64,000 nucleotides of DNA from an uncultured Spirochaetota bacterium (GTDB lineage: Bacteria; Spirochaetota; Spirochaetia; SZUA-6; Fen-1364). Each line of letters starts with the position of its first letter. The stretch's first letter is position 1. A model generated the notes under the pieces. That model was given only the letters and a program-made list of their open reading frames with translations, was not told the origin of the DNA and made no database searches. Location of the stretch: NCBI GenBank assembly GCA_963781885.1, contig CAWAHW010000002.1:768001-832000 (forward strand), written 5' to 3'. Position numbers and translations under genes: made by a program. Below are positions 3,281-64,000 of the stretch, one piece after another.

Positions 3281-3872
3281 TGCCTGCCTCCGCCGCGCTT
3301 GCTCCGCGCGTGTCCCCGGCCGTGCTCACGGCGAGCGTGATGAGCGTCCCGGCCGTCTTGCCCGGATGGAAGCTCATGGGCCGATCCCGCTCGTCCAGGA
3401 AAACGAGTCGGAACTCGTCGAATGTCTTCCGCGCGACATAGATCCCCATTCCGAAGCGCTTGTACTCGTGCTGCTTCTGGTAGGCATCGAAGGACGCGGA
3501 GTGAAGGTCGAGCGTCCGCGGGTCGGTTGACAGGTCGTAGGGCAGATTCTTCGTGTCGAAGCCGCCGCCGAAGTCCCGCACGGAGACCATGAACCGGCCG
3601 TCGAGCGCGCTCAGGTCGATCCAGATGTCGCGCGATTCCCCTTTTTCCCGGTGGGCGCGGATGGAATTGTTGAGGAGCTCCAGGATGGCGAACCGGATGT
3701 GCTCGGTGCTCACCCGTGACGGGGGGATGACGATGGCGTCGAGGATGCGGATGACCTCACGGAAGTCCGCATGGGGGTCGATGGACAGACGAATGGTCCT
3801 GCTCTGCAGACCGTTCATCTTGAGTGCGGGCGCGGGTTCCATGTCGTCCGTCTCTTTTCCTCTCTCCGACAT
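3270..3872 (-). CDS. ATP-binding protein, RsbW/anti-sigma-like HATPase_c
   Basis: ELLNNSIRAH (N box), VRDFGGGFD (G1), FGMGIY (G2). Confidence 0.75.
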   Translation of the reverse strand: MSERGKETDDMEPAPALKMNGLQSRTIRLSIDPHADFREVIRILDAIVIPPSRVSTEHIRFAILELLNNSIRAHREKGESRDIWIDLSALDGRFMVSVRDFGGGFDTKNLPYDLSTDPRTLDLHSASFDAYQKQHEYKRFGMGIYVARKTFDEFRLVFLDERDRPMSFHPGKTAGTLITLAVSTAGDTRGASAAEAGNGN

Positions 3873-3889
3873 TCGTGGATACTGCGGGA

Positions 3890-6800
3890 ATGGTATATGT
3901 TATCGCGGAGTTGCGCAATTACCGGCAGCTCGTGCGCCTGAGGGCGAAAGACCTCGCGAGCCTGGAGGGGTCGCTCCTTGCCGCCCTTGACACGCACCTC
4001 GCCCGGCCCGCGGCCGCGGGTCCAGGCGTCTGGACGGCCGCGGTGGGGCAGGAAGCCGAGATGGACCCTGCGTCCGCCGCCCTCGGCGCGGCCCGGATAC
4101 GCGACCTTCTTCTTTCCCTCCGCGGGCAGCTCTTCGGCTTCGCGGTGCTGATCGCGGCCCTTGATGCCGATACACCCCCTTCCTCGGCCCTCCGCGGTCT
4201 GCTCGACGCGGCGGAGGAGGACGAGCAGCTCTGGATCGCGCGCGGGTGCGCGGAGCTTTTCGCGGATGCACTCGCCTGGGAGGCCGGCGGCGCCGTCTGC
4301 AAGGTGACGGGTCTGCGCCGGCCGGCGCCGCGCGAGGAGACGCAGCCGGACGCGCCGCGGCCCTGGGTGCGGGAGGCGCTGGTGGACCGCGCGCTTGACC
4401 TCATGAGCGGCAGGATCAACAGCGGCGAATCGCACGACGTCCTCTGGGTGCGGGGACCTCGCGGCGTGGGAACGACGGACCTCGTAGGGGAGATCGCCGC
4501 GCGGCTGCAACGCGACCCCGACACGCCGTGGCTGCGCATGCGCACGATATTCAAGAGGCGCTCGCCCCTGCATCCCTTCCTGCCGACGCTTCTCCCCGGT
4601 CTCATCGACGCCGTGCCGGATTCGCTGCGCGGTCCCGAGAGGGAGGTCTGGTCCGACGTCGGGGGGCTGCTCGCCTGGCTGCAGGACCCTGCCGGCCGGG
4701 AATCCCGGGGCGTGATACGGCCGCTACCCGATCACATCCTGGAGGACTTCTGTCTCGGTTACAGGCTGTACCTCCTGGCCTGGATACGCGCGGCGGAAAG
4801 GACCCTGGCTCCCGCGATCTTCGTCTGTGAAGGCATCGACGCGTATCATCCGGCCGCCCGCAGGATCGTGGGCCAGCTCATCGACGAGCTGCTTGCGCGC
4901 CCGGGTTTCCTTCCCGTCGTGACCACGTCTTCCGTGCGGGCCCCCGACGAGATCGCCGGGCTCTCCCTCGTGCCTTTCCACGTGCATCCGCTGGGCAAGC
5001 GCGAGATACGGTCCCTTGCGCGGCATGTCTTTCCGGGTCTTGCGGTTCCCGCCTCTCTCGCGCGGATCCTCCATCATCGATCCGGCGGGCTTTCCGTTTC
5101 CGTCGTCTCCTACCTCCACTACCTTGCAAAGACCGGGCGCATTGTCGCCCGCGGCGACGGCTTCGCCTGGGTGCAGGACGCGCAGGAGACGCTCGTCATC
5201 CCCGCCAACCCCCTCTCGGTGTCCTGGTTCCTCATCCGGGACCTGCGTTCGGACACCTTTCTCTTTCTCTACGCCCTCTACCTTGCGGCCGGTCTGCTCG
5301 ACCGGCACGGCTTCCAGGACTTCCTGGCCGAGGCGGGCTTCGACGCGGCGACGATTTCCCGGTCCTTTTCCGATCTGGCAGCCTCCGGTCTCATGGCCGA
5401 CGAGCCCGAGCTCATCCCGCTTTTCCCCGCCCTGCGCCGCAAGCTGGAAGAGCTGCTGGGGAGGGAAGGCGTGAGCCTGCGCGAGCGTTTCATCGCCCAC
5501 ATGTTCGCGCTCTGGACCGGCGGACGTTACCGTCACCCCGTGCTCCTCTTCACGTTTCTCGCGCGCAACGGGAGGACCGACCTTGCGCTGCGGATCCTGC
5601 CCGACATCATCCGCCGCAAGCTCGACGAGTGCGATCCCGCCGGCGCCGTTGTCTTCTGCGACCTGCGCTCGCTCGACTTCGCGGTGCCGCCCACCCCGGA
5701 GCAGGCGCGCGAGCTCGCCGCCGTCGTGGCGCTGGGACGCCTGCGCGCCGCGCTGATGCGCCAGGATGCACCCGCTGCCGAGGCGGCGCAGGCCGAGGCC
5801 CGCAAGTGGGCTTCCACCGATGCGCCGGTCCCCCTGCGCGGGGAGGTGGGCGTCGAGCGGGCGAAATATTTTCTCTCCACCGGCAACTCCGGCGCCGCGC
5901 TGGAAGAATTGAAGAAGGGCCTTCTCCTGAGCCAGGAGTCGCGGAGCGACGCGGCGGACTCCGCGGGGGCGGAGAAGGGCGATCGGCCGTTCTATCTCTG
6001 GCTGGGTGCCACGATGCTCGCCGAGGGACGGCTGGGCGAAGCGGTGGAATACCTCGGGATGTCACAGAGATTGTGCCAGGAGGCCGACGACGCCCCGGGG
6101 CTGCTCTGGACCCTCGTGTACCTGGCGGACAGCTGCTTCATCGCGGGACGCTACACCCAGTGCTTCACCGTACTCGAGCAGGGATTGCGCAAGGCGCACG
6201 CCCTCTACCGCCGCGAGGTGGAGCTCTTCCTGGAGTTCCTGCGCGCGCGCGTGCTCTTCCAGGTCGGCTCCTATGAAGAGTGCTCGCTGTGCCTCCAGGC
6301 CTGTCTCTGCCTCGCCACCCTGTACGGCCGCGACGATGCGCTTCCCGTCCTGCGCGCGTGGCTGGGACGCACGCTTCTGCACCAGGGTGAGTCGGCGTCC
6401 GGCACGCGTCTCCTGGAGAGCCTTTCGCGGCAGACGAAAGAGGTCCTCCTTTTCCAGGCGGAGGGCTGCCTTTTCTCCGGCAACCTCGAAAATGCCTCCC
6501 TCTATGTCGAGCGCGGGCTCGGGCTTTCCGCGGCATCGCGCTTTCCGGCGCCGGAGGGCGTCCACTGGCAGGATGGCTTTGCCTGCGCGGAAGGCCGCTG
6601 CTTCCGTCTCAGCAGGGGGGACGCGTACCTGCGGCGCACCCTGGGCGGGCTTCGCGCCTATCTTCTCGGTCTGCGCGGTTTTCGCGAGGAGGCGATACGC
6701 GAGCTGCGGCAGCTCACCCGCGGTGAGAAGGCCGTGGAGGAGGATCCCGGCGTTTTCGTCCTGAACTACCTCTACTCGCAGGTCCTGCCCGAGGCCGGCG

Positions 6801-7058: not shown

Positions 7059-7856
7059 ATGATGCGTTTCCGTCTTTCTTTTCCCGCGGCTCTCGTGAGG
7101 CCCGACAGGACCTTTGCGAGCCGCGAGATCTACGCGATACCAAAAGTCATCCTCGTTCTCTCCCTCTTTGTCCTCTACATTGCCGGTGAGCGTCTCGTCC
7201 AGGGCTACTACCAGAACGAGCATGCAAAGACCCTGGCGCTCCTGGAGGTGGATTCCCGCATGGGCGGCTTTCTCCAGAACGCCCCCGCCCAGGTGCAGCG
7301 GCAGGCGCGCGACCAGATGCTGGACTCGATACTCGGCCGCCGCAGCGCGATGATGACGGCGTTCGGCATCGTTTCCGCCGGCGTGAGCTTTCTTCTCGTG
7401 CTCCTTGAGTCGTGGATCGTGAGCGCGGTGGCGTGCCAGTTCTTCGGCGGTCAGGAGGAGAAGACGGGCAGGGGACGCCCATCTGCCACGCTTTTCGTGG
7501 TGGCATGGTTTCCCCTGGCGCTGCGAAGGCTCCTGGCGGGCGTCATCATGGCGGCCCGCAGCCCCGATGCCGCCTCCAATGCGCTGACGCTTGCGGACTA
7601 TCGGAAGCTGAGCGCCGTCCGCTTCGACCTGTACTCCCTCCTCCATCTGCCGAACGTGGGGCCATTCCTCACGGCGGTGGCGACCATGGCGACCGATCCC
7701 TTTCTCCTCTGGACGCTCGCGATCCTCTGGTTCGGAGGCAGGGAGGTCTACCATATGCCGCTGCGGAGCGCGGTGATGCTCACCGCGGTTCTCGTCGTTC
7801 TCCTGGGGCTGCAGAGCGCGCTTCTGGGGCGCATCGGTGTTCAGTGGGAGCTGTAA
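7059..7856 (+). CDS. YIP1-family membrane protein
   Basis: About five TM segments with LVRPDRTF and DPFLLW patterns, lying upstream of a TolC/MacAB-type operon. Confidence 0.65.
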   Translation: MMRFRLSFPAALVRPDRTFASREIYAIPKVILVLSLFVLYIAGERLVQGYYQNEHAKTLALLEVDSRMGGFLQNAPAQVQRQARDQMLDSILGRRSAMMTAFGIVSAGVSFLLVLLESWIVSAVACQFFGGQEEKTGRGRPSATLFVVAWFPLALRRLLAGVIMAARSPDAASNALTLADYRKLSAVRFDLYSLLHLPNVGPFLTAVATMATDPFLLWTLAILWFGGREVYHMPLRSAVMLTAVLVVLLGLQSALLGRIGVQWEL

Positions 7857-7998
7857 TGATGAAACCAGCGACTCTCAGTATGGTGACTGAATGATGCAGT
7901 TCTCATTTTGTCCCATGATAAATGACCGCTTTCTATGTGTGTCGTACACGTTCCAAACCCAAGAAGGCCCAAAATGAGACAAGCCGCATCGAGCATGG

Positions 7999-8580
7999 TT
8001 GCAGGCTCTTGAGTTGGAGGATCCGCTGGAGCAGTTGACTCTCACCGAGTACCGCTGCCAAGTCGACGAGCTGGAGGAGAAGTGTCGGCGGATCAAGGCG
8101 GGCATCGAAGAGATCGCGGCACGTAAAAGCTATGCCGAACCTGTAGCCAAGCTGAAGGCGTTCAAGGGCGTGGAGACGCTGATCGCCTTGTCGCTTGTTT
8201 CGGAGATCGGGGACTTTCGGCGCTTTGCAGGTGCGGATCAATTCATGGCGTTTTTGGGGTTGGTGCCCTCCGAGCGATCCAGCGGAAACAAGAGGCGCTT
8301 GGGAGGAATCACAAAGGCGGGTAATTCCCACCTGCGCAAACTTCTGGTGGAGGCCGCCTGGCAATACCGCAGCTACCATCCCAGTAGCACTCGGTTGATG
8401 AAACGACGCGAGGGTCTTTCTCCATCCTTGGTCAGCTATGCCAACCGTGCGTGCAGGCGGCTAAACAAGAAATTTCTGCGTCTGCTTTTTCGCGGCAAAG
8501 CTTCTCAGACCGTGGTGACGGCGGTGGCGCGAGAGCTCTCGGGGTTCCTGTGGGGCGCGATGGTTGATCGGGTGGCTTGA
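7999..8580 (+). pseudogene. IS110 transposase, C-terminal (Tnp20) half only
   Basis: Matches the last 193 aa of ORF 46273..47466, including GLVPSERSSG and GNSHLR. The DEDD domain is absent. Confidence 0.92.
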
Positions 8581-8847
8581 GGAGGCTGCGTATGCAATCG
8601 AGGCAACCGGGACGGATGGGGAAGGTTCGTGGCGAACGGAGAATCCTCGAGCGGTTCTGCAGGCAGACTATGGTCTGATCCTGGTAATGAGACGGAGGCA
8701 AGCTCCTGACGATCACATTGGCCTGCGGTAACCAATCCACGCATATCAGACTGGTCGATCGTCGGTTATGCCCTTCTCCATCTCTTCGGGTTGGCCTCGA
8801 TGTTCAGAAGGAGTTCTAAAGAAAAAAGGAGGCTTTTAGAGCTTGAC
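8581..8847 (+). ncRNA. Putative bridge/seek RNA in the IS right-end non-coding region (copy A); exact ends unknown
   Basis: Two stem-flanked internal loops (8644-8698, 8706-8765) carry segments matching the target (AGCGGTTCT, AATGAGA) and the donor junction (ATTG, CATATCAGAC). Confidence 0.75.
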
Positions 8848-8875
8848 GGGGGCACATCATATCAGAACTGCTGTG

Positions 8876-10456
8876 ATGAAACGTGTCCTCTTGACGTGCA
8901 TCGCGGCGGCGCTTGCGCTGCCGGCCCTTTTTGCCGACGACGCGGCGACGCCGCAGACTCTTTCACTCGGCGATCTGCCTGCCCTGGTGCTCGGTCACGA
9001 CACGGGCGCCGCGATCTCGGCGCAGACCACGCAGTTCGCCCTCCACACCTACCGGGGAGCCATCGCGCAGGCCCTTCCCCAGATCGACTTCACCTCCAAC
9101 TATTCCCTCGCCTATACGCCCCTGTACGAGTCGGAATCGATCAGCCTCGGAGTCCCCCCGTACGGCTTCGGGATAGACGACACGAAGACGCAGGACCAGG
9201 GGAATCACTTCCTGGACACGAAGCTTTCCCTGTCGCAGCTCCTGCCCACGGCGGGCAACCTCTTCTTCAGCCTCGAAAACAGCATGACGATCAGCGCCGT
9301 CGGCAGCCAGACGGTGAACGGCATCGCCGTGACCACGGCCGACACGCAGTTCAGCGAGAAGCCGAAGGTGAGCCTCAACCTCACGCAGCCGCTTCTCCTC
9401 AATGGCAAGCTGATCGACTTCGACCTCTTTCCCGCAACGCTCCGCAAGGCGGAGCTGGGCTATCTCGAGCAGGACGCCGCGGACATGGCGCAGAGGAACC
9501 AGCTCGTGGGTCAGGCCGTGCAGAGCTATCTCGCGGTCATCCAGCTTCGCCGGAATGTCGCCCAGACGCAGAAGAGCATCGACGTGACGCAGGGCAATCT
9601 CGACGTGATGGAGAAGAACTACTCGCTGGGGCTCGTGGCGGAGCCTGACCTGCTGGACGCGCGCATCGGCCTTTCCCGTCAGAAGCAGGCGCTCCTGGAG
9701 CTCTCCTCCACGCTCGCGAAGACCGAGCGCCTGCTCGCACACGCAATCGGCAGGACCGACGTTGCAGCCGTCGTGTTCTCGGAGGACATCCCGCCGCTCG
9801 CCTTCGGCCTCGGCCGCGAGGAGGCAGTGGCGCGGGCCTTCAGCGGTCACCCGCTCCTCCGTCAGAAGGGGCTCACCGCGGAGGAAAGGCGCCTGGACAC
9901 GATACTCGCCGGGCAGCAGTATGCCTCCACGCTGTCCCTTTCATTCTCCTGGTCGCCCCGTTACCCCTTCACCACGAACACGCCGTACATGACGGACTTC
10001 AACTCGTCGTTCTCCGATCTGTTCAAGACGGGCGCGGGAAACGATTACTCCCTCGCCGCGGGTCTCACGATCCACCTCTATGATGGCGGCAGCCAGAGGG
10101 AGGGTCTCGCGGGCCAGGCGGCGCTCGGTGCGGCCGCGGACCAGGGTCTGGTTGCCCAGAGGCAGGAGGTGCAGGACCAGGTGGAGCTGGACCTCCTGGA
10201 AATGGCGAGTCTCCAGGAAAAGGTGGCGCTGCTGGAAGAATCGGCGCGGCTGGACGAGCGGCGGCTCTCGACGGAGCAGAGCCTGCTCGCGTTGGGCAAG
10301 TCAACCGAGCTTGCGGTGGAGTCGAAGGCTGCCGACGTCGATGCCGGGGCAAACGAGCTGTGGCGCGCGCGGGCGGATCTCTATCTCACGATTCTGGACC
10401 TGCATTCCCTCACGGGGGATGACGTGGCGAAGATCGTCCAAGGAAACGGGAAATGA
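8876..10456 (+). CDS. TolC-family outer membrane efflux protein
   Basis: Signal peptide MKRVLLTCIAAAL and OEP-type repeats (ALPQIDFT, LTIHLYDGG). Confidence 0.85.
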   Translation: MKRVLLTCIAAALALPALFADDAATPQTLSLGDLPALVLGHDTGAAISAQTTQFALHTYRGAIAQALPQIDFTSNYSLAYTPLYESESISLGVPPYGFGIDDTKTQDQGNHFLDTKLSLSQLLPTAGNLFFSLENSMTISAVGSQTVNGIAVTTADTQFSEKPKVSLNLTQPLLLNGKLIDFDLFPATLRKAELGYLEQDAADMAQRNQLVGQAVQSYLAVIQLRRNVAQTQKSIDVTQGNLDVMEKNYSLGLVAEPDLLDARIGLSRQKQALLELSSTLAKTERLLAHAIGRTDVAAVVFSEDIPPLAFGLGREEAVARAFSGHPLLRQKGLTAEERRLDTILAGQQYASTLSLSFSWSPRYPFTTNTPYMTDFNSSFSDLFKTGAGNDYSLAAGLTIHLYDGGSQREGLAGQAALGAAADQGLVAQRQEVQDQVELDLLEMASLQEKVALLEESARLDERRLSTEQSLLALGKSTELAVESKAADVDAGANELWRARADLYLTILDLHSLTGDDVAKIVQGNGK

Positions 10457-12470: not shown

Positions 12471-13684
12471 ACGTCACCGAGGGTTTCCGCGAATCCTGGG
12501 ACACCATCCGCCACAACCGCCTGCGCACCATCCTCACCATGCTCGGAATGAACATCGGCGTCGCCTCCGTGATCGCCGTGATGGCGACGGGTCTCATGGG
12601 GCGCGGTGCCATCATGAAGGGCATCGAGAACATCGGCTCCAGCCTCCTCTGGGTGCAGGCGGCGCGGGATTCCTACCCCACGGGTCGCGATATCACCTAC
12701 TTGAAGCCCGTGGACCTGTCGACGCTCGCCACGATCGTGCAGGACGCATGGATATCGCCCAACCTGCGCGCGAACTATTCCATGGGATACCGCGGCGACC
12801 AGGAGATGTCCTCCGTCTACGGCGTATGGCCGGACTACCAGCGCATGTGGGGGAGGGCGCTGCAGGCCGGACGCTCCATCAGCAAGGAGGACGTGGACCA
12901 GCGCCGACGCGTCGTGGTCCTGGGCATGAACACCGCGCGCGCGTTCTTTCAGACCGAGGACGCCGCCCTTGGCAACAGCGTGAGCTTTGCCGGCAAGGAT
13001 TTCACCGTGATCGGCGTCATGGCGAAGAAGGAGAGGTCCCCCGTGGACGACGGCTCCGACGACGACACCGCGTACGTACCCTACGAGATACTGTCGGATG
13101 TCACGAACTGGGACCAGTACGGCGGCCCCCGGATCATGCGCATCTATCTCAAGGTCCATGACATGGCGGACCTCGACTTCGTCTCCGGGCAGATCGACCA
13201 GTACCTCGATCACAAGTACGGCAAGGTGGAAGGGAAGCCCCGATTCGTCGTGAAGAAGGCGGAGGACAGCATCCAGACCACCAACAAGGTCTTCGACATC
13301 ATCACGACCGTCATCACGCTGATCGCCGGCATCTCTCTGGTGGTCGGGGGCATCGGCATCATGAACATCATGCTCATCACGGTCACCGAGCGTACGCGCG
13401 AGATCGGCATCCGCAAGGCGCTGGGCGCCAAGCGCCGCGACATCCTCGCCCAGTTCCTCATCGAGTCGATCATCATCTGCCTCATCGGCGGCGGCGTCGG
13501 CATCCTCTTCGGCATCGGCATCACCGCGATCATCTCCGTGGCCCAGAAATGGGAGTACCTTCTTCCCTGGGCCGCCATCATGCTCGGGCTCGGGGTCTCC
13601 ATCGGCATCGGGCTCTTCTTCGGCATCTACCCGGCGCTGAAGGCGGCCCGGCTGGACCCCGTCGTGGCGCTGACGAAGGAGTAG
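12467..13684 (+). CDS. ABC transporter permease (MacB_PCD + FtsX)
   Basis: [28 protein letters not shown] motif. Confidence 0.95.
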
Positions 13685-13687
13685 GCG

Positions 13688-14920
13688 GTGCGGCTGATCT
13701 CCCTCTTCGAGGAGGCGTGGCTCGCGATACGGACCAACAGGTCCCGCACCGCCCTCACCATCCTGGGCATCGTGATCGGGGTCGGCTCGGTCATCTCCGT
13801 GGTCGGCGTCGGTGAAGGAGCCAAGCGGGTCGTGGGGGACCTTCTCGGGCAGTTCGGGTCCACCTCCATCATCGTGGCGCCCAATTTCACCGCCATCCGC
13901 GAGAGCAAGGGAAAGTTCCGTTTCGAGGAGATCTCGCGGGACGACATCGAGACGATCAACACCCGCGCGCCCGCCGTCCGCGGCGTCACGCCGCAGATCC
14001 AGATGGATGCCGAGGTGAAGTACGGGGACACCACGGAGAAGGCGACGCTCTTCGGCACCATGCACCAGTACCTCTCCGCGAGCAAGCTCTCCCTGCGCCG
14101 GGGTCGTTTCCTCGATCCCGATGACGACACGTTCATGAGAAAGGTCGGCGTGCTGGGCGCCGATCTTGCCCAGAATCTTTTCGGCGCGGACAACCCCGTC
14201 GGCAAATACGTGCGCATCAACAATATCGTCGAGGTCGAAATCATCGGCGTTCTGGAGAAGGAGGAAAAATCCTTCATCTCCACGGTCTCTGATTTCGACA
14301 CGTCCAACAACAACCGCCTTTTCGTCCCGTCCTCCGCCATCGAGCGGGTGGGCGGGAGCTCGCAGGTGTACTTCCTCATCGGTGAGGCGGTGTCCGAAGA
14401 CCGCATCGACGAGGCGAAGCAGCAGATCATGGCCATCCTGGACAAGAGCCACGGCAAGTGGAGCGGCACGGTGGAGAAGTACTTCGTGCAGGAGATGGGC
14501 CAGGTGCTCGCGATGATCGACACGGCCACGAGCACGCTCACCACCGCCATTTCCATCATCGCGGGCATCGCGCTCCTGGTGGCCGGCATCGGGATCATGA
14601 ACATCATGCTCGTCTCGGTGAAGGAGCGCACCCGGGAGATCGGCGTGCGCAAGGCGCTGGGCGCCCGGCAGTCATCGCTGCTCAACCAGTTCCTGCTGGA
14701 GACGCTCATTCTCTGCGGCGGCGGGGGTCTGTTCGGGGTCGGCTTCGCGGTCGCCGCCATCCAGCTCGTCGCATCGCTGTCAAAATGGCCCGCCGTTATT
14801 TCCCTCAGCGTCATCGAGCTGGCCGTCATCCTTTCCCTCGTGACGGGTCTCATCTTCGGCCTGTATCCGGCAAGCCGCGCGGCAAAAATGGATCCCGTTG
14901 AGGCGCTGCGCTACGAATAG
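13688..14920 (+). CDS. ABC transporter permease (MacB_PCD + FtsX), second paralog
   Basis: [27 protein letters not shown] motif; ends DPVEALRYE. Confidence 0.95.
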   Translation: MRLISLFEEAWLAIRTNRSRTALTILGIVIGVGSVISVVGVGEGAKRVVGDLLGQFGSTSIIVAPNFTAIRESKGKFRFEEISRDDIETINTRAPAVRGVTPQIQMDAEVKYGDTTEKATLFGTMHQYLSASKLSLRRGRFLDPDDDTFMRKVGVLGADLAQNLFGADNPVGKYVRINNIVEVEIIGVLEKEEKSFISTVSDFDTSNNNRLFVPSSAIERVGGSSQVYFLIGEAVSEDRIDEAKQQIMAILDKSHGKWSGTVEKYFVQEMGQVLAMIDTATSTLTTAISIIAGIALLVAGIGIMNIMLVSVKERTREIGVRKALGARQSSLLNQFLLETLILCGGGGLFGVGFAVAAIQLVASLSKWPAVISLSVIELAVILSLVTGLIFGLYPASRAAKMDPVEALRYE

Positions 14921-20649: not shown

Positions 20650-21746
20650 GCAGCGAGGAGAAAATGTCCGAGCCCGTACCCGTCTCCATTTCGGAGCTTT
20701 CCAAGAGGGGCTACCAGCTGCTCAAGGAAGAGCATATCGCGGAGGCGGAGGAGAATTTTCGCCGGATCCTCACCATCGAACCGCAGAACAACTACGCCCT
20801 CGTGGGCATGGGGGACGCGGCGCGCAAACGCAAGTCCTACCACGAGGCAATCCGCTACTACGAGGAATGCCTGGGCTACCACGTCGGGAACAAGTACGCG
20901 CTCGTCGGCCTCGCCGACAGCTACCGTTCGCTCAAGCAGTTCCACCGGGCGATCGAGATCTGGGAGAAGTACCTTGCCCAGGGGGACAGCGACGTGACGG
21001 TGCTCACGCGCATCGCGGATGCCTACCGGAAAGTCCTCGACTTCAGCCGGTCAAAGGAGATCTATCACAAGATCCTGGAAATCGACCCGGGCAACCCCTA
21101 CGCGCTCACGGGTCTGGGCTACCTGCACTTCGATCTGAAGGAGTACCGCGAGGCGCTCACGTACTGGGAGAAGATGCACGAGAAGGACCCCAAGAATATC
21201 TGGGTGCTCACGTCAATAGGTAACTGCTACCGCAAGCTGAAGACCTACGAAAAGGGCATCCCTTATTTCAAGAAAGCCCTGGAGATACAGCCCGGCAACT
21301 TCTATGCCCTCTTCGGACTGGCCGACTGCTATCGGGGCATGAACGACCCGCAGGAATCGCTATTCTACTGGCAGAAGATCCTCGATGCCGATCCCGACAA
21401 CAAGGTGATCCTCACGCGGATCGGGGATTCGCACCGGGCGATGAACAATCTCGACACGGCGCGGGAATACTACAGCAAGGCCCTCAACATCGAGTTCGAC
21501 AGCTACGCGGTGCTCGGGCTGGCCCTGATCAACAAGGAGAAGGGCAATTACCTCGAGGCCATCGAAAGCCTTTCCGGGCTTCTGGTCAACGACGCGAAGA
21601 ATCCCCGGCTGTACCTGGAGATCGCGCAGAGCTGGCTCGCCCTGGACAAGAAGGACAAGGCGCTCGACGTGCTCACGCGCGCCCAGCGCATGGGCATCAA
21701 GAACCTCGGCATCGGCGAGCTGCTGGAGAAGCTGCAGAGAGGATAG
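20646..21746 (+). CDS. Tetratricopeptide repeat protein
   Basis: Multiple 34-aa repeats (NNYALVGMG, NKYALVGLA, NPYALTGLG, NFYALFGLA). Confidence 0.92.
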   Translation: MSSEEKMSEPVPVSISELSKRGYQLLKEEHIAEAEENFRRILTIEPQNNYALVGMGDAARKRKSYHEAIRYYEECLGYHVGNKYALVGLADSYRSLKQFHRAIEIWEKYLAQGDSDVTVLTRIADAYRKVLDFSRSKEIYHKILEIDPGNPYALTGLGYLHFDLKEYREALTYWEKMHEKDPKNIWVLTSIGNCYRKLKTYEKGIPYFKKALEIQPGNFYALFGLADCYRGMNDPQESLFYWQKILDADPDNKVILTRIGDSHRAMNNLDTAREYYSKALNIEFDSYAVLGLALINKEKGNYLEAIESLSGLLVNDAKNPRLYLEIAQSWLALDKKDKALDVLTRAQRMGIKNLGIGELLEKLQRG

Positions 21747-21748
21747 CC

Positions 21749-21882
21749 CGGCCACGGTACTCCGTGGCATTCGCGGCCACGGTACTCCGTGGCATTCGCG
21801 GCCACGGTACTCCGTGGCATTCGCGGCCACGGTACTCCGTGGCATTCGCGGCCACGGTACTCCGTGGCATTCGCGGCCACGG
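21749..21882. repeat. Tandem array of a 25-bp palindromic REP-like unit (5 copies + 9 bp)
   Basis: CGGCCACGGTACTCCGTGGCATTCG repeated head to tail, each with stem GCCACGG/CCGTGGC, between convergent genes. Confidence 0.95.
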
Positions 21883-21950
21883 GCTCGTTGCCGTATCCAA
21901 CTCCGCTAGGAACGGAAGGTACTCGCTCGCCCTTGCCCTCCCTGGCTAGG

Positions 21951-31549: not shown

Positions 31550-31559
31550 GCGTCCACCA

Positions 31560-31680
31560 AAGCAGTTCTCATTTTAGACCTTCCGGAGACCTGGAACAGG
31601 TATGCACACTTTGAAAACGGCCGTCCCTCATGGGACAAAATGAGAACTGCATCATTCAGTCACCATACTGAGAGTCGCCG
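31560..31680 (-). mobile_element. MITE copy B (121 bp), uninterrupted
   Basis: 14-bp inverted arms GCAGTTCTCATTTT (31562-31575) and AAAATGAGAACTGC (31637-31650) plus a 30-bp extension. Flanked by CGTCCACC(A/C) at 31551-31559 and 31681-31689. Confidence 0.9.
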
Positions 31681-45961: not shown

Positions 45962-46005
45962 CGGGCGGGCGCGCCGGGTCAGCAGTTCTGATATGATGTG
46001 CCCCC

Positions 46006-46272
46006 GTCAAGCTCTAAAAGCCTCCTTTTTTCTTTAGAACTCCTTCTGAACATCGAGGCCAACCCGAAGAGATGGAGAAGGGCATAACCGACGATCGACC
46101 AGTCTGATATGCGTGGATTGGTTACCGCAGGCCAATGTGATCGTCAGGAGCTTGCCTCCGTCTCATTACCAGGATCAGACCATAGTCTGCCTGCAGAACC
46201 GCTCGAGGATTCTCCGTTCGCCACGAACCTTCCCCATCCGTCCCGGTTGCCTCGATTGCATACGCAGCCTCC
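46006..46272 (-). ncRNA. Putative bridge/seek RNA (copy C); exact ends unknown
   Basis: Same sequence as 8581-8847. Target loop 46155-46209, donor loop 46088-46147. Confidence 0.75.
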
Positions 46273-47367
46273 TCAAGCCACCCGATCAACCATCGCGCCC
46301 CACAGGAACCCCGAGAGCTCTCGCGCCACCGCCGTCACCACGGTCTGAGAAGCTTTGCCGCGAAAAAGCAGACGCAGAAATTTCTTGTTTAGCCGCCTGC
46401 ACGCACGGTTGGCATAGCTGACCAAGGATGGAGAAAGACCCTCGCGTCGTTTCATCAACCGAGTGCTACTGGGATGGTAGCTGCGGTATTGCCAGGCGGC
46501 CTCCACCAGAAGTTTGCGCAGGTGGGAATTACCCGCCTTTGTGATTCCTCCCAAGCGCCTCTTGTTTCCGCTGGATCGCTCGGAGGGCACCAACCCCAAA
46601 AACGCCATGAATTGATCCGCACCTGCAAAGCGCCGAAAGTCCCCGATCTCCGAAACAAGCGACAAGGCGATCAGCGTCTCCACGCCCTTGAACGCCTTCA
46701 GCTTGGCTACAGGTTCGGCATAGCTTTTACGTGCCGCGATCTCTTCGATGCCCGCCTTGATCCGCCGACACTTCTCCTCCAGCTCGTCGACTTGGCAGCG
46801 GTACTCGGTGAGAGTCAACTGCTCCAGCGGATCCTCCAACTCAAGAGCCTGCAACCATGCTCGATGCGGCTGCGTCCATGTGGCTCCTTGTTCATAACGT
46901 ATCCGCCTCCGCAGAAGAAAACCCAGCACGCGCTGCTTGGCCTTGCGCAGATCGGACTTCATGTCCTCCAGCATTCGTAGATAGTCGCGAACCGCTTCGT
47001 CTTCCCGCGTGGGTACATGAACGGCACTCACATCCCCGCTCCGAAGTGCGCGAGCAAGCATCACAGCGTCCCTTCTATCGGTCTTTATGCGATCTCCCGG
47101 ACGATGTGGAATCTGAGACGGAGCCAGCACCGCACACGGCACACCCAGTTCCGTCAATTGTCGATACAGGGAATACCCTAGACATCCCGCCTCGTAGCAT
47201 GTCACCAGGTCCCCCGCGGACTGGAGCTTCTTGAAATAGGCCTGGATTACGCTCTTTTCATTGCGAATCACCGTCTCGGCCCTCGGCTTCTGATCGCGCC
47301 CGCTCAGGATCGCTATGGCGATCTTTTCTTTGTCGACGTCCATGCCAACGTAATGTACAATACCCAT
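46273..47367 (-). CDS. IS110-family recombinase (DEDD + Tnp20), 364 aa
   Basis: GMDVDK, CYEAG and KTDRRDA (DEDD) plus the GLVPSERSSG serine loop. RBS AAGGGGG before ATG 47367. Confidence 0.97.
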   Translation of the reverse strand: MGIVHYVGMDVDKEKIAIAILSGRDQKPRAETVIRNEKSVIQAYFKKLQSAGDLVTCYEAGCLGYSLYRQLTELGVPCAVLAPSQIPHRPGDRIKTDRRDAVMLARALRSGDVSAVHVPTREDEAVRDYLRMLEDMKSDLRKAKQRVLGFLLRRRIRYEQGATWTQPHRAWLQALELEDPLEQLTLTEYRCQVDELEEKCRRIKAGIEEIAARKSYAEPVAKLKAFKGVETLIALSLVSEIGDFRRFAGADQFMAFLGLVPSERSSGNKRRLGGITKAGNSHLRKLLVEAAWQYRSYHPSSTRLMKRREGLSPSLVSYANRACRRLNKKFLRLLFRGKASQTVVTAVARELSGFLWGAMVDRVA

Positions 47368-47669
47368 GACTGCCCCCTTGTGCGTTGTTTGTGGCGTGCC
47401 GCATCGAGACGCCAATCTCATGATACGGCCGATCCACGTTGTAGCAACCACCTGGGGGCACTTCATATTGTCTCATTTTGGACCTTTCTGAGGTCTGGAA
47501 CGTATGCAGACTTGGAAAACGGCCTTTCATTAAGGGACAAAATGAGAACTGCATCATTCAGTCACCATACTGAGAATTGCTGGCGCCGGGTTTCTTGTCA
47601 CAACCGGCGATTTGCGATAGTATCCCTGTCAAAGTCCTCAACACCCTTTCACGAAAGAAGGTTTCACAT

Positions 47670-54203: not shown

Positions 54204-54372
54204 GGTTGCCCAGCATAACACAAGCGGCGGGGCTCATCCATGGCGCGGGGCGCCGCACGGCCCGCAGGCGCCGGGTTCGGCCGGCGAGGCGCCACGGGCC
54301 GCCGGCGCCGGCGGCAGGGCACCCTGCCGTGACTTGACTTTCGACCGATTTATCGCATTCTTATATCCATAC

Positions 54373-54503
54373 TTTTCTTCGAGGCAGGGAGCATTTCCCG
54401 ACCGGCGGTAGAGCCCGCAACCTGGATCGCGACCGCGCGCGGCGCGTGAAGGTGGAAACGGTGTGATTCCGTTGCCGACAGTACAGTCTGGATGGGAGAA
54501 GGA
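54373..54503 (+). promoter_or_regulatory. FMN riboswitch (RFN element)
   Basis: Conserved blocks TCTTCGAGGCAGGG, TTCCCGACCGGCGGTA, GCCCGC, GGTGTGATTCC and GCCGACAGTACAGTCTGGATGGGAGAAG. P1 abuts the RBS. Confidence 0.92.
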
Positions 54504-54509
54504 AGGAAC

Positions 54510-56078
54510 ATGCCGGAACCGTTGATCGAGGCGCGAAGCCTCGGATTTTCCTACCCGAACATGGACGTGCTGGACACGCTCACTTTCACCGTGGAGACGG
54601 GGAGCTTCGTGTCGTTTCTGGGCCCGTCGGGCTGCGGGAAGAGCACGCTCCTGAACCTGATCGCCGGCATCCTCCACCCGTCGCGCGGCGAGCTGCGCGT
54701 CAACCCTTCGCGGATCTCCTTCGTCTTCCAGAACGATACGCTGCTGCCGTGGCGCTCGTCGATCGCCAACGTGCTCCTTCCCTTTGACCTGCTGGGATTG
54801 CCCGCATCCGACGAGCTTCGCGGCCGCGGCATGCGCCTCCTTGCGGACCTTGGCCTCGCGGGGAGTGAAGAGCTTTTCCCGTCCCAGCTTTCGGGGGGCA
54901 TGAAGAAGCGCGTGGAGCTTGCGCGGGCGCTCGTGACGGAGCCCGAGCTTCTCATCCTCGACGAGCCATTCTCATCGCTGGACATCATGACGCGCGAAAG
55001 ACTGAACGTCATGGTCCGCGCGCTTCACCGGCGGACGGGCGGAAGCGTCGTGATGGTGACCCATTCGGTTGAAGAGGCATGCTTTCTGTCGGACCGCCTC
55101 TTCGTGCTCTCCTCCGCCCCTGCCCGCATCATCGAGGCCCATGAGCTGTCGAAAAATGGAGAGGAGCTTCCGGCCCATTATCTGCTCTCCCGGACGGAGA
55201 GGGGTGTTGCAGAGGACGTCCGCAGGAATGCAAATGCGCTCTGGACGGTTCCGTTTGAGAAGGTCGTTTTGCAGAAACGAGACAAGGAAGAAACGGGCGC
55301 GGGTCGCGCGACGGGGCGAGATTTTCTCCGCCGCCACTACGGCTGGGTGCTGGTGCCCGCGGAGCTCGCGGCGATCTTTTTCGTGCTGGTCTTCCTCAAG
55401 GTGCGCATTCCCATTCCCGACTACATCCTTCCGCATCCGTGGGGCGTGCTCACGCGCTTTGCCACGACATTGTGGCGCGGCACCATACTTCCCGACGTCG
55501 GCATGACGGTCTATGAATCCCTCGCCGGTTTCGGGATCGCATTCGCCGCATCGCTCGTGCTGGGCTACGGCATCGCGAAGTCGCGTCTCGCATCACGCCT
55601 CCTCATGCCGTACCTCATCGCGGCCAACACCATCCCCACCATTGCGCTTGCACCTTTCCTGGTGCTGTGGCTGGGTTTCGGGGCGGCTCCCCGTATCGTG
55701 ACGTCGGCCATCGTGATCTTCTTCCCGATGCTGGTCACCACGATTTCCGCGATCGGCATCGCCGAGCGGGAGATGAGCCAGCTCATTTCTTTCTTCCGGC
55801 CTCCCCGCCTGCGGCGTTTCGCGTATTTCGAGCTGCCTGCCTCCCTGCCGATGATCGCGAGCGGTGTGAAGGTGTCGATCACGCTTTCGGTGATCGGCGC
55901 CGTCGTCGGGGAGTTCGTCGCGGGCAATCGGGGGCTGGGGGCTCTCGTGAGCATCGCGAAGGCCAATTTTGACGTGGAGCTGATGTTCGTGGGTTTGATC
56001 TGGCTCGTGCTGCTCGGCCTTGCGTATTACGCGGCCGCGGGCCTTGCCCACAGGCTGGTGGCACGCTCGCTTCGATAG
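54510..56078 (+). CDS. NitT/TauT-type ABC transporter, fused ATPase + permease (probable riboflavin uptake)
   Basis: GPSGCGKS, LSGGMKKR and LDEPF, followed in frame by a permease domain (IPTIALAP, VIGAVVGEF). Confidence 0.85.
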   Translation: MPEPLIEARSLGFSYPNMDVLDTLTFTVETGSFVSFLGPSGCGKSTLLNLIAGILHPSRGELRVNPSRISFVFQNDTLLPWRSSIANVLLPFDLLGLPASDELRGRGMRLLADLGLAGSEELFPSQLSGGMKKRVELARALVTEPELLILDEPFSSLDIMTRERLNVMVRALHRRTGGSVVMVTHSVEEACFLSDRLFVLSSAPARIIEAHELSKNGEELPAHYLLSRTERGVAEDVRRNANALWTVPFEKVVLQKRDKEETGAGRATGRDFLRRHYGWVLVPAELAAIFFVLVFLKVRIPIPDYILPHPWGVLTRFATTLWRGTILPDVGMTVYESLAGFGIAFAASLVLGYGIAKSRLASRLLMPYLIAANTIPTIALAPFLVLWLGFGAAPRIVTSAIVIFFPMLVTTISAIGIAEREMSQLISFFRPPRLRRFAYFELPASLPMIASGVKVSITLSVIGAVVGEFVAGNRGLGALVSIAKANFDVELMFVGLIWLVLLGLAYYAAAGLAHRLVARSLR

Positions 56079-62505: not shown

Positions 62506-64000
62506 GCGGTCTCCCCCCCGTGTGTCGCCGGCCCGCTTCCCGCCATCAAAAGCCCGATCTGCTCGCGGCTCAGGCTGGCTGCCTCGAACGGGCCGGTCAG
62601 GCGGCCGCGGTACATGACGACGATGCGGTCCGCCAGGGCCATCACCTCGTCCAGCTCGGATGAGATGAGGAGCACCGCCACCCCTGCATCGCGCGCCGCC
62701 ACCAGCCGGTTGTGCACGTATTCGATGGAGCCGATGTCCAGACCCCGGGTCGGCTGCGCGGCGAGGATGAGACGGATGTCCCGCGGCAGCTCGCGCGCGA
62801 CGATCACCTTCTGCTGGTTGCCGCCGGAGAGCGTCTTCACCGGCGCATGCACGGACTGCGCGCGGATGTCGAAGTCTTTCAGCCTTTCCTTTGCGACGCC
62901 GAAGATCGATTGCCAGCGGAGAGCGCCCCCGCGCGAATACGGGACCTCGTCGTGCACGTCCAGGACGATGTTTTCCGCGATCTCGAAATCCCCCACGAGG
63001 CCGTCACGCTGACGGTCCTCGGGGATGTTCGCCACGCCCGCACGCAAAATGGCCTTGGGCGATGCCCCCGTCAGGTCGCGGCCGGCAATGCGGACCGATC
63101 CGCCGATGACCAGCGCAAGGCCGGTAATGCCCTCCGAGAGCTCGGTCTGGCCGTTTCCCTGGACACCCGCCACGGCCACGATCTCCCCGGCCCGCACCTC
63201 GAGGTTGAGCCCGTCGACGGCGATGCGCCCGGACTTGTCGAGGACGGTCAGGTTGTGCACCTGCAGGATCGGCTCCCGGGGGTGCGCCACGCCTTTTTTC
63301 ACCTGAAGGTCGACGCCGCGGCCGACCATCATCGAGGCGAGGTCCTGCTCCGTGGTCTGTGCGGGGGTCGTCGTTCCGATCACCCTGCCCTGGCGGATCA
63401 CGGTGATGCGGTCCGCGATGGCAAGGACCTCCTTCAGCTTGTGCGTGATGAAGAGGATGGTGCGGCCCGACACGCGAAGGCTTCGCATGACGGCGAAAAG
63501 CTCGTCGGTTTCCTGGGGCGTGAGAACCGCGGTCGGCTCGTCGAGGATCAGGAGGTGCGCCTCCCGCGCCAGCGCCTTCACGATTTCCACGCGCTGCTGC
63601 TGCCCGACGGAAAGCTCCCCCACCACGGCATCGGGATTCACCTCGAGGCCGAAGCGCCGCGACAGCTCGGCGATCTCCTGGCGCGCGCGCCTTTGATCCA
63701 GGAACCCCAGGCGGCTTGTCCGTTCGAATCCGAGCATGACGTTTTCGGAAACGGTGAAGACGGGGATCAGCATGAAGTTCTGGTGCACCATGCCGATGCC
63801 GGCCTTGATGGCCTCCCCGGGATTGGCGAAATGAACGGGCGCGCCGTCGATCAGGATGACACCGTCGTCCGGCCGGTACAGCCCGTCGAGCACGTTCATC
63901 AGGGTGGTTTTGCCCGCCCCATTTTCGCCGAGGAGGGCATGAATTTCGCCCTCCTCGGCTGTGAGACTGATGCGGTCGTTGGCCACAAGGTCTCCAAACC
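62502..64000 (-). CDS. Nucleoside/sugar ABC transporter ATP-binding protein (NupA-like); 5' end outside the window
   Basis: GENGAGKT, LSVGQQQR and LSGGNQQK; the frame is open to the window edge. Confidence 0.92.
   Translation of the reverse strand, partial: FGDLVANDRISLTAEEGEIHALLGENGAGKTTLMNVLDGLYRPDDGVILIDGAPVHFANPGEAIKAGIGMVHQNFMLIPVFTVSENVMLGFERTSRLGFLDQRRARQEIAELSRRFGLEVNPDAVVGELSVGQQQRVEIVKALAREAHLLILDEPTAVLTPQETDELFAVMRSLRVSGRTILFITHKLKEVLAIADRITVIRQGRVIGTTTPAQTTEQDLASMMVGRGVDLQVKKGVAHPREPILQVHNLTVLDKSGRIAVDGLNLEVRAGEIVAVAGVQGNGQTELSEGITGLALVIGGSVRIAGRDLTGASPKAILRAGVANIPEDRQRDGLVGDFEIAENIVLDVHDEVPYSRGGALRWQSIFGVAKERLKDFDIRAQSVHAPVKTLSGGNQQKVIVARELPRDIRLILAAQPTRGLDIGSIEYVHNRLVAARDAGVAVLLISSELDEVMALADRIVVMYRGRLTGPFEAASLSREQIGLLMAGSGPATHGGETA

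Follow-up and report, generated by a model that had tools for sequence, protein, structure and literature searches.

The systems most closely related to the locus described here are insertion sequences (ISs) of the IS110 family that encode guide RNAs. The seekRNAs of the IS1111-group elements ISEc11, ISPa11 and ISKpn4 are encoded 3' of the transposase gene, in a long non-coding region (Siddiquee et al. 2024, PMC11187229), and the bridge RNA of IS621 carries a target loop and a donor loop (Durrant et al. 2024, PMC11208160; Hiraizumi et al. 2024, PMC11208158). Such RNAs have been shown or predicted for most IS1111 elements (93% in PMC11208160; also PMC11187229). In the 64,000-nucleotide (nt) stretch of an uncultured Spirochaetota genome that we analyzed (hereafter the window; positions 768,001 to 832,000 of contig CAWAHW010000002.1), plus-strand positions 8601-8798 and an identical stretch near 46055-46252 on the minus strand very probably encode a guide RNA of this kind (a seekRNA or bridge RNA), belonging to an IS1111-type element; we put the probability of this reading at roughly 0.9. 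Because PMC11187229 and PMC11208160, both from 2024, already cover most IS1111 elements, the finding joins a known class and does not open a new one.

The host of the RNA region is a 1484-bp element with a 286-nt non-coding 3' end, and comparison of its copies places an intact one at 45987-47470 on the minus strand. Its transposase gene (46273-47367, minus strand) encodes 364 amino acids (aa) followed by a stop codon, compared with the 330-350 aa quoted for the IS1111 family (PMC11187229), and a domain search of the product found DEDD_Tnp_IS110 and Transposase_20 domains (PF01548, E = 3.7e-13, and PF02371, E = 4.8e-22). The protein also matches the NCBIfam model NF033542, "IS110 family RNA-guided transposase", with 237.3 bits (cut-off 140). 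Its C-terminal domain matches the solved transposases of IS621 (8wt6, E = 1.1e-07) and ISCro4, the similarity to the IS621 protein being confined to about 68 residues, and contains the motif GL-P----S(t)G in the form GLVPSERSSG, with G258, P261 and G267 invariant and L259 and S266 nearly so among 36 relatives. The two non-coding ends differ in length, with 286 nt downstream of the gene (45987-46272) and 103 nt upstream (47368-47470). Subterminal inverted repeats of 15 nt, complementary at 14 of the 15 positions, lie 2 nt and 4 nt from the ends of the intact copy: the left one occupies 47454-47468 on the minus strand and has 45991-46005 as its partner, and the right one, GGGGGCACATCATAT, measured on the intact copy, corresponds to 8848-8862 on the plus strand. 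Both their length and their short terminal extensions agree with the IS1111 group, whose subterminal repeats measure 7-17 bp. The domains, the subterminal repeats, the long non-coding region downstream of the gene, the motif and insertion into a single sequence are the marks by which we assign the element to the IS110 family and its IS1111 group, and these marks are described in PMC11187229 and PMC11208160; subterminal inverted repeats, a GL-P----SG motif and a repeated, potentially folded target are likewise shared by the elements of PMC11187229. The kinship is distant, with 26-27% identity to the transposases of IS5075 and IS4321 over 71-80% of the query.

The plus-strand RNA region belongs to a second copy of the same element, of 887 bp (7980-8866), and it is in this copy that the original prediction had placed a guide RNA, at 8581-8847. 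The two window copies are identical from 7982 on, which confirms the further claim that the same sequence recurs at 46006-46272 on the minus strand, and complementarity between the repeat arms 7961-8873 and 45980-46892 is 99%. Set against the intact copy, 7980-8866 shows a 597-bp internal deletion, by which it lost almost the whole left end together with the left subterminal repeat and the DEDD domain; the third base of the left end is now joined directly to the middle of the transposase gene. Because AGA is common to donor and target, the boundaries of this copy can be moved by up to 3 nt. What remains of the transposase is the C-terminal 193 codons of an open frame (7999-8580, plus strand), in which the domain search found PF02371 only. 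The reading of 8581-8847 as a guide RNA gene is supported for the RNA but not for its surroundings: since the element around it is without a left end and a DEDD domain, the recombinase next to it is a fragment, and this copy is part of a dead deletion derivative that does not move by itself.

Both window copies contain a core of the predicted guide RNA gene with a target-binding and a donor-binding loop, recognized by the covariance model described below at 8633-8766 on the plus strand (104.5 bits, E = 1e-24) and, in identical sequence, at 46087-46220 on the minus strand of the intact copy (104.5 bits). A closing helix between 8601-8634 and 8765-8798 (duplex energy -40.8 kcal/mol) extends the structured unit to about 198 nt, a length in a similar range to, and somewhat longer than, the 145-170 nt (about 150-200) of the long seekRNA in PMC11187229. 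The stems that had been predicted for the two loops (CCTCG/CG(G)AGG, CAGG/CCTG and CAGAC/GTCTG in loop 1, and the stem of loop 2) are all present. In the RNA, the target-binding loop (loop 1) is closed by stem P1, in which CCUCG (8645-8649) pairs with CG(G)AGG (8693-8698) around one bulged G, and it contains at 8660-8683 a stem P2 (CAGG 8660-8663 with CCUG 8680-8683) topped by the apical hairpin CAGAC-uaug-GUCUG (8664-8668 with 8673-8677). The donor-binding loop (loop 2) is closed by helix 4, which joins CTGACGATC (8706-8714) to GATCGTCGG (8757-8765) in nine pairs, one of them U.G. The minimum-free-energy fold of 8581-8873 yields both stem-loops, as predicted; its energy is unremarkable (z = -1.77), and for that reason we turned to relatives instead.

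Three strands in these loops match the DNA at the boundaries of the element. The 5' guide of the target loop, AGCGGUUCU (8650-8658), can pair with the top strand of the core AG and the adjoining AACTGCT; written as DNA, these positions (AGCGGTTCT) are complementary to AGAACTGCT (8864-8872) except for a single G.T at G8653. The 3' guide of the same loop, AAUGAGAC (8686-8693), reads as the left flank AATG, the core AG and the two opening bases of the left end (AC): AATGAGA at 8686-8692 is identical to 7973-7979, and the identity extends by one base (C8693 = C7980). By inference, this strand pairs with the bottom strand of the target. In the donor loop, the 3' guide CAUAUCAGAC (8742-8751) corresponds to the right end CATATC, the core AG and AC, in that CATATCAGAC equals the right end CATATCAGA (8858-8866) plus the C that starts the left end; this is the identity to a circle junction that the original prediction had put forward, and as described below the 7-mer at its heart covaries with the right end among relatives. 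When 8581-8847 was shuffled 20,000 times, a right-flank pairing run of 9 arose in 343 shuffles, a left identity run of 8 in 75, a right-end identity of 9 in 9, and all three together in none.

The structure is conserved well beyond this genome. The loci of relatives number at least 175, come from two public collections and from the order to which the window belongs, show 40-67% protein identity and span many phyla; the scans of the public collections gave, among the matches listed, identities of 40-59%, and four closer loci came from the window's order. A protein search also found many 364-aa relatives with 58-91% identity. Thirty-four downstream regions could be aligned well, and in these RNAalifold recovered, for loop 1, the outer and inner stems and, for loop 2, the outer one. 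The covariance model built from that alignment (R1) matches 165 of 175 loci among the matches listed (95 of 99 in one set and 70 of 76 in the other). In the 99-locus set, the one in which strand and position were verified row by row, the matches lie on the gene strand and downstream of the gene, save for a second, inverted match in a single locus (L039). Across the 93 distinct rows of this set, in an alignment fitted to the model, the paired fraction of cells is 95.3%, and both sides have changed in 19 of 20 pairs; all five pairs of helix 2 (P1) changed on both sides and all four of helix 3 (P2) were compensated. None of 500 shuffles reached the observed values, and partners slid out of register were only 21-60% paired. 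G.U pairs occur on the sense strand in the relatives' alignment. The arms of the closing helix likewise fit each other better within a locus than between loci, with a mean of -43.3 kcal/mol for cognate and -20.6 kcal/mol for non-cognate arms (n = 129; 0 of 2000 permutations).

Two further pairings were considered and set aside. RNAalifold proposed a hairpin AUCA/UGAU within the loop 2 guide, which was left out of the model because the conserved guide would be buried in it, and a pairing ATTGG/CCAAT in the window was rejected as unconserved in the alignment. Rfam holds no family that matches this RNA at its gathering score, the matches found being at chance level only (E = 2-7). Among the relatives, two loci carry a second, weaker match to the RNA model that adjoins the first (L072 at 3669-3811 and 3880-3975; L088 at 3645-3739 and 3837-3973), and these double matches may be duplicates, tandem or degenerate, of the stretch that encodes the guide RNA. 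One match comes from a cultured organism: on the Leptospira interrogans plasmid NZ_CP136246.1, the RNA (L199, 1835-1976; 81.1 bits) lies downstream of an IS110-family gene with 46.5% identity to that of the window.

The bases in the loops also change together with the DNA that they would contact. For this comparison the loop strands were taken from the model alignment, the right end was located by each locus's own loop 2 7-mer and the left end by the subterminal repeat, and the fit of a guide to its own flanks was set against its fit to the flanks of other elements. Of 170 rows, 5 were incomplete, leaving 165, and the removal of 15 without a right end and 9 with a short flank left 141, with 118 distinct 5' guides. 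The 5' strand of loop 1 forms a run of at least 6 with the core and right flank in 86 of the 118 cognate comparisons and in 112 of 13,806 non-cognate ones, the mean run being 5.94 against 2.10 (0 of 2000 permutations); an independent extraction by text pattern, several of whose low values are extraction errors, gave 6.14 against 2.11 (0 of 5000). The 3' strand of loop 1 matches 5.89 nt of its own left junction and 3.85 nt of others (n = 97; 0 of 2000). In loop 2, the 7-mer recurs as the right end of the same locus whether it is the common ATATCAG (99 of 129), ATAACAG (13 of 15, with ATATCAG at none of the 15) or one of the rarer words ATACCAG (3 of 3), ATCCTAG (2 of 2), ATAAGAG (2 of 2) and ATGAGAG (2 of 3). 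Loop bases covary with their DNA partners for three guide strands, and together with the covariation of the structure this supports the original claim of an IS1111-type element with its guide RNA 3' of the transposase.

Several observations weigh on the other side. The alignment behind the pair counts (A3) was fitted to the model, which tilts those counts toward the structure, and the relatives are kin, so the permutation counts above are not exact probabilities. The right run is shorter than 6 in 32 of the 118 non-redundant relatives, the window's own 5' guide has an exact Watson-Crick run of only 5 with its one G.T, and in the closest relative among the loci gathered (L176, whose gene carries a stop) the right flank misfits the guide. 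No left-end guide was found when the 5' strand of loop 2 was compared with the core and left end in 88 non-redundant relatives. As to expression of the defective copy, a search of 7800-8950 for sigma-70-like promoters found none, and a search of sequencing runs found no RNA run containing the stretch. The contigs of four DNA runs contain no circle junctions or joints, the contigs ending at the IS ends (45980, 47584).

The insertion site is legible from the copies in the assembly (7 contigs, 4.64 Mb), which number nine: seven full ones, an incomplete one and the deleted one. All nine lie at one point, AATGAG|AACTGCT (AAAATGAGA|ACTGCTG), close to the right end of an approximately 121-bp repeat that resembles a miniature inverted-repeat transposable element (MITE), always in the same orientation and without a duplication of their own beyond the shared core (9 of 9 copies). 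Around the plus-strand copy in the window, the left part of the MITE-like repeat (7865-7979, plus strand) ends in the left half of the target, AATGAG (7973-7978), followed by A7979, and its right end (8867-8873) is the right half, ACTGCTG. The shared AGA occupies 8864-8866, where comparison of occupied with empty sites and with relatives gives AG (8864-8865) as the core and leaves the third base not assignable. An 8-bp direct repeat, TGATGAAA, flanks the MITE-like repeat at 7857-7864 and 8874-8881. An unoccupied MITE-like copy (31559-31679, minus strand), flanked by a 9-bp direct repeat GGTGGACGC, contains the 13-nt target AATGAGAACTGCT uninterrupted at 31561-31573, and thereby fixes the insertion point to within the shared AGA.

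The motif CCAGCA[A/G]TTCTCA... forms the terminal inverted repeats of the MITE-like repeat and occurs in it a third time, internally; the direct repeats around its copies measure 8-12 bp and differ at each place. The pieces of the MITE-like repeat in the window are 7865-7979 with 8867-8873, 47471-47583 with 45980-45986, and 31559-31679. Since IS copies are 98-100% alike and the MITE-like host copies only 74-89%, we read the MITE-like element as the earlier resident. The copy interrupted on the plus strand lies between the stop codon of the open reading frame 7059-7856 and the start of a gene for a signal-peptide protein (ATG at 8876), and the duplication TGATGAAA contains that ATG. Across the whole assembly the 13-nt target is intact four times (at three MITE ends and once elsewhere) and split by the IS nine times, so that 9 of 13 sites with this target are occupied. 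The perfect empty target outside any MITE copy lies on contig C4 near 720262, in the context TCTTGAAATGAGAACTGCTTTGAAATAC. The internal motif, AATGAGAACTGCA, stands in the opposite orientation and matches 12 of the 13 target positions, the last base differing (for example at 7895-7907 and 47542-47554); it accounts for 16 of the 20 matches to the 12-nt word in the assembly and for none of the nine IS copies. The last base of the target or the sequence context seems to matter for insertion.

The same inventory bears on the alternative that survives best, namely that the RNA is genuine for the family while the element is inactive in this genome, its nine insertions being old and 8581-8847 a silent relic. 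The copy at 7980-8866 fits this picture, being without a left end and a catalytic domain, as does the failure to find joints or circle junctions in the contigs of the four runs, a weak argument given that contigs break at repeats. Against it stand the condition of the gene and of the RNA: the transposase frame is open and free of stops over 399 codons in eight of the nine copies, the incomplete one counted (identity 100% in the genome-copy table and 99.7-100% by tblastn), and the RNA region is identical in all eight readable genomic copies. The greater likeness among IS copies than among their host repeats points to recent spread, and four perfect targets are still empty. We therefore consider an inactive element unlikely.

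A second alternative concerns the nature of the molecule. In IS200/IS605 elements, subterminal hairpins of single-stranded DNA pair with target DNA, and the sequence analyzed here might act in the same manner, with the folded right end as single-stranded DNA pairing with the target. All our tests were made on DNA sequence and are blind to the difference between an RNA and single-stranded DNA of the same strand, and G.T pairs are possible in DNA. What argues for RNA is the company that the sequence keeps, because the protein matches the NCBIfam model named for an RNA-guided transposase and its C-terminal domain matches that of the IS621 recombinase, whose structure was determined together with its RNA; moreover, the family partner described in PMC11187229 is an RNA that co-purifies with the transposase and is sensitive to RNase and resistant to DNase. 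A single-stranded DNA guide thus appears very improbable. Least probable of all, to the point where we give it hardly any weight, is that the region forms a structured 3' untranslated tail of the transposase gene, or a small regulatory RNA, that affects stability or translation, with flank matches due to chance: the ordinary fold energy of the window would suit it, as would the occurrence of each match alone in 0.05-1.7% of shuffles, yet the three matches never occurred jointly in the 20,000 shuffles, and a tail does not predict loop bases that change with flanks and ends in relatives.

Within the guide RNA reading, the original prediction of four guide segments fares less well for the donor loop than for the target loop. 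Three segments covary with DNA in relatives as described, but the fourth does not: ATTG (8717-8720), proposed as the left-end guide, is literally complementary to the CAAT of the left end, and a match of 4 nt is at chance level. It lies in a variable part of the RNA that is able to pair internally, and among the relatives compared above the 5' strand of loop 2 shares a mean run of 3.95 with its own left end and 3.81 with those of others, the observed value being reached in 90 of 2000 permutations. On present evidence we rejected it as a guide.

The proposed 3-bp AGA core also needed revision. AGA is indeed shared between donor and target in this element, but across the family the core reduces to A(G). 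In relatives, AG almost always stands at the left junction, with the element's own first base (A or T) next to it; at the right junction the base following AG varies with the target, and in 25 of 141 even the G differs from the loop 2 word. This variation after AG makes A(G) the family core and AGA a stretch of the window element that is not assignable; with A(G) as the core, the left match in the window runs over 8686-8693 (AAUGAGAC). The 25 loci form a sub-clade (L043, L058, L059, L128, L142 and others) with CAA or CAC at the right junction and CAG as the loop 2 word. Their 5' target guide tracks the right junction, and donor and target share one A only.

In the 3' strand of loop 1, the base after the core agrees with base 1 of the left end in 82 of 88 relatives and with base 1 of the right flank in only 15 of 88, a pattern resembling the handshake guides described for IS621 (PMC11208158). 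The corresponding base of the donor loop is ambiguous: it agrees with base 1 of the right flank in 38 of 88 and with that of the left end in 40 of 88. One tentative possibility, to which we give well under even odds, is that the guide RNA of this clade works with three guide strands, which would read both target strands together with a handshake base of the left end, while the donor loop would read the right end only, the left end would be recognized through its subterminal repeat, and part of the clade would share a single A. The long subterminal repeat might be recognized by the protein or by the same CAUAU guide, the latter being conceivable because the repeat makes the two ends mirror images of each other.

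Our working model of the reaction follows the tested relatives in PMC11187229 and PMC11208160, from which the RNA nature of the molecule, its binding by the recombinase, the circle and the junction promoter are carried over by analogy. The element would excise as a circle, and the joining of its ends would set the outward-facing -35-like hexamer of the right end, TTGACG (8843-8848, plus strand), ahead of a -10-like hexamer in the left end; if the ends were joined, an 18-nt spacer would separate it from the left-end CAATAT. Of 141 relatives, 129 carry an outward-facing TTGACA-like hexamer 16-19 nt ahead of the core's end, and left ends, which start ACATAAT, ACATCAT or ACAATAT, contain -10-like hexamers. 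From such a junction promoter the transposase and the RNA would be transcribed together, with the RNA, read in the direction of the transposase gene and folded as two loops within the long closing helix, then trimmed. The complex of the DEDD/Tnp recombinase with the RNA would bring the joined ends of the circle to AATGAG|AACTGCT in the right terminal repeat of the MITE-like element. There, the 5' strand of loop 1 would pair with the top target strand (core AG plus AACTGCT), and its 3' strand, which has the top-strand sequence AATG plus AG, with the bottom strand, extending one to two bases into the left end in a handshake-like manner. Loop 2 would contribute a single strand with the right-end sequence (CATATC plus AG). 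With loop 1 thus on both target strands and loop 2 on the right end, strand exchange would take place at the core.

Set beside the described systems, this arrangement most resembles the IS1111 seekRNAs of PMC11187229, in which the top-strand match is likewise 5' of the bottom-strand match and both cover some of the same target bases. It differs from those elements in its distant transposase and in its target, the terminal repeat of a MITE-like element, and it is known here from sequence alone. To IS621 it is alike in that every guide reads a single strand, to one side of a short core, in the handshake-like match of the target-loop base beside the core to the donor, and in the related C-terminal domain of the protein. 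Unlike in IS621, as described in PMC11208160 and PMC11208158, the RNA lies in the right end and not the left, the top-strand and bottom-strand matches come in the reverse order, the donor loop has one clear guide, for the right end, and the subterminal repeats are long. The landing site itself has a precedent among known IS1111-type elements, which also includes insertion in one orientation into the terminal inverted repeat of another mobile element; here the host is instead a MITE-like repeat of about 121 bp with 8-12-bp duplications, and the transposase is only 26-27% identical. A further parallel is ISPpu9 of Pseudomonas putida (PMC12288879), an IS110-family element in repetitive extragenic sequences with a small RNA, Ssr9, encoded downstream and with extra copies of the RNA that lack a full element. 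Element and host are different in our case, and the extra RNA copy arose through an internal deletion that kept the C-terminal half of the gene.

Elsewhere in the window we noted a tandem array of about six copies of a 25-nt unit, four of them identical (21724-21907), an FMN riboswitch at 54371-54507 on the plus strand (99.8 bits; gathering score 66.2), a direct repeat of 128 nt with 80% identity (13302-13429 and 14538-14665), and an inverted repeat of 82 nt with 71% identity (54886-54967 and 63535-63616).

For the family, the locus adds a readable natural example of what is probably an RNA-guided recombinase, with its ends, its target, an empty site and three guide strands all legible, and it offers a starting point for work on an IS1111-type system with a 364-aa protein and on the question of how the left end is recognized. 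That the recombinase may be reprogrammable, as originally proposed, is an inference from tested family relatives. The roughly 120 relatives with different targets form a set in which about 8-9 nt pair on the right side, with the core counted, and 6-8 nt on the left side. Three features may interest specialists: a left-end guide appears to be missing, some of the clade has a core of one base, and the element lands at a MITE end. If the three-guide scheme were true, it would represent a mechanistic variant of bridge recombination whose strand exchange differs in geometry. For the organism, the target choice of this IS accounts locally for the frequent interruption of the genome's MITE-like repeats.

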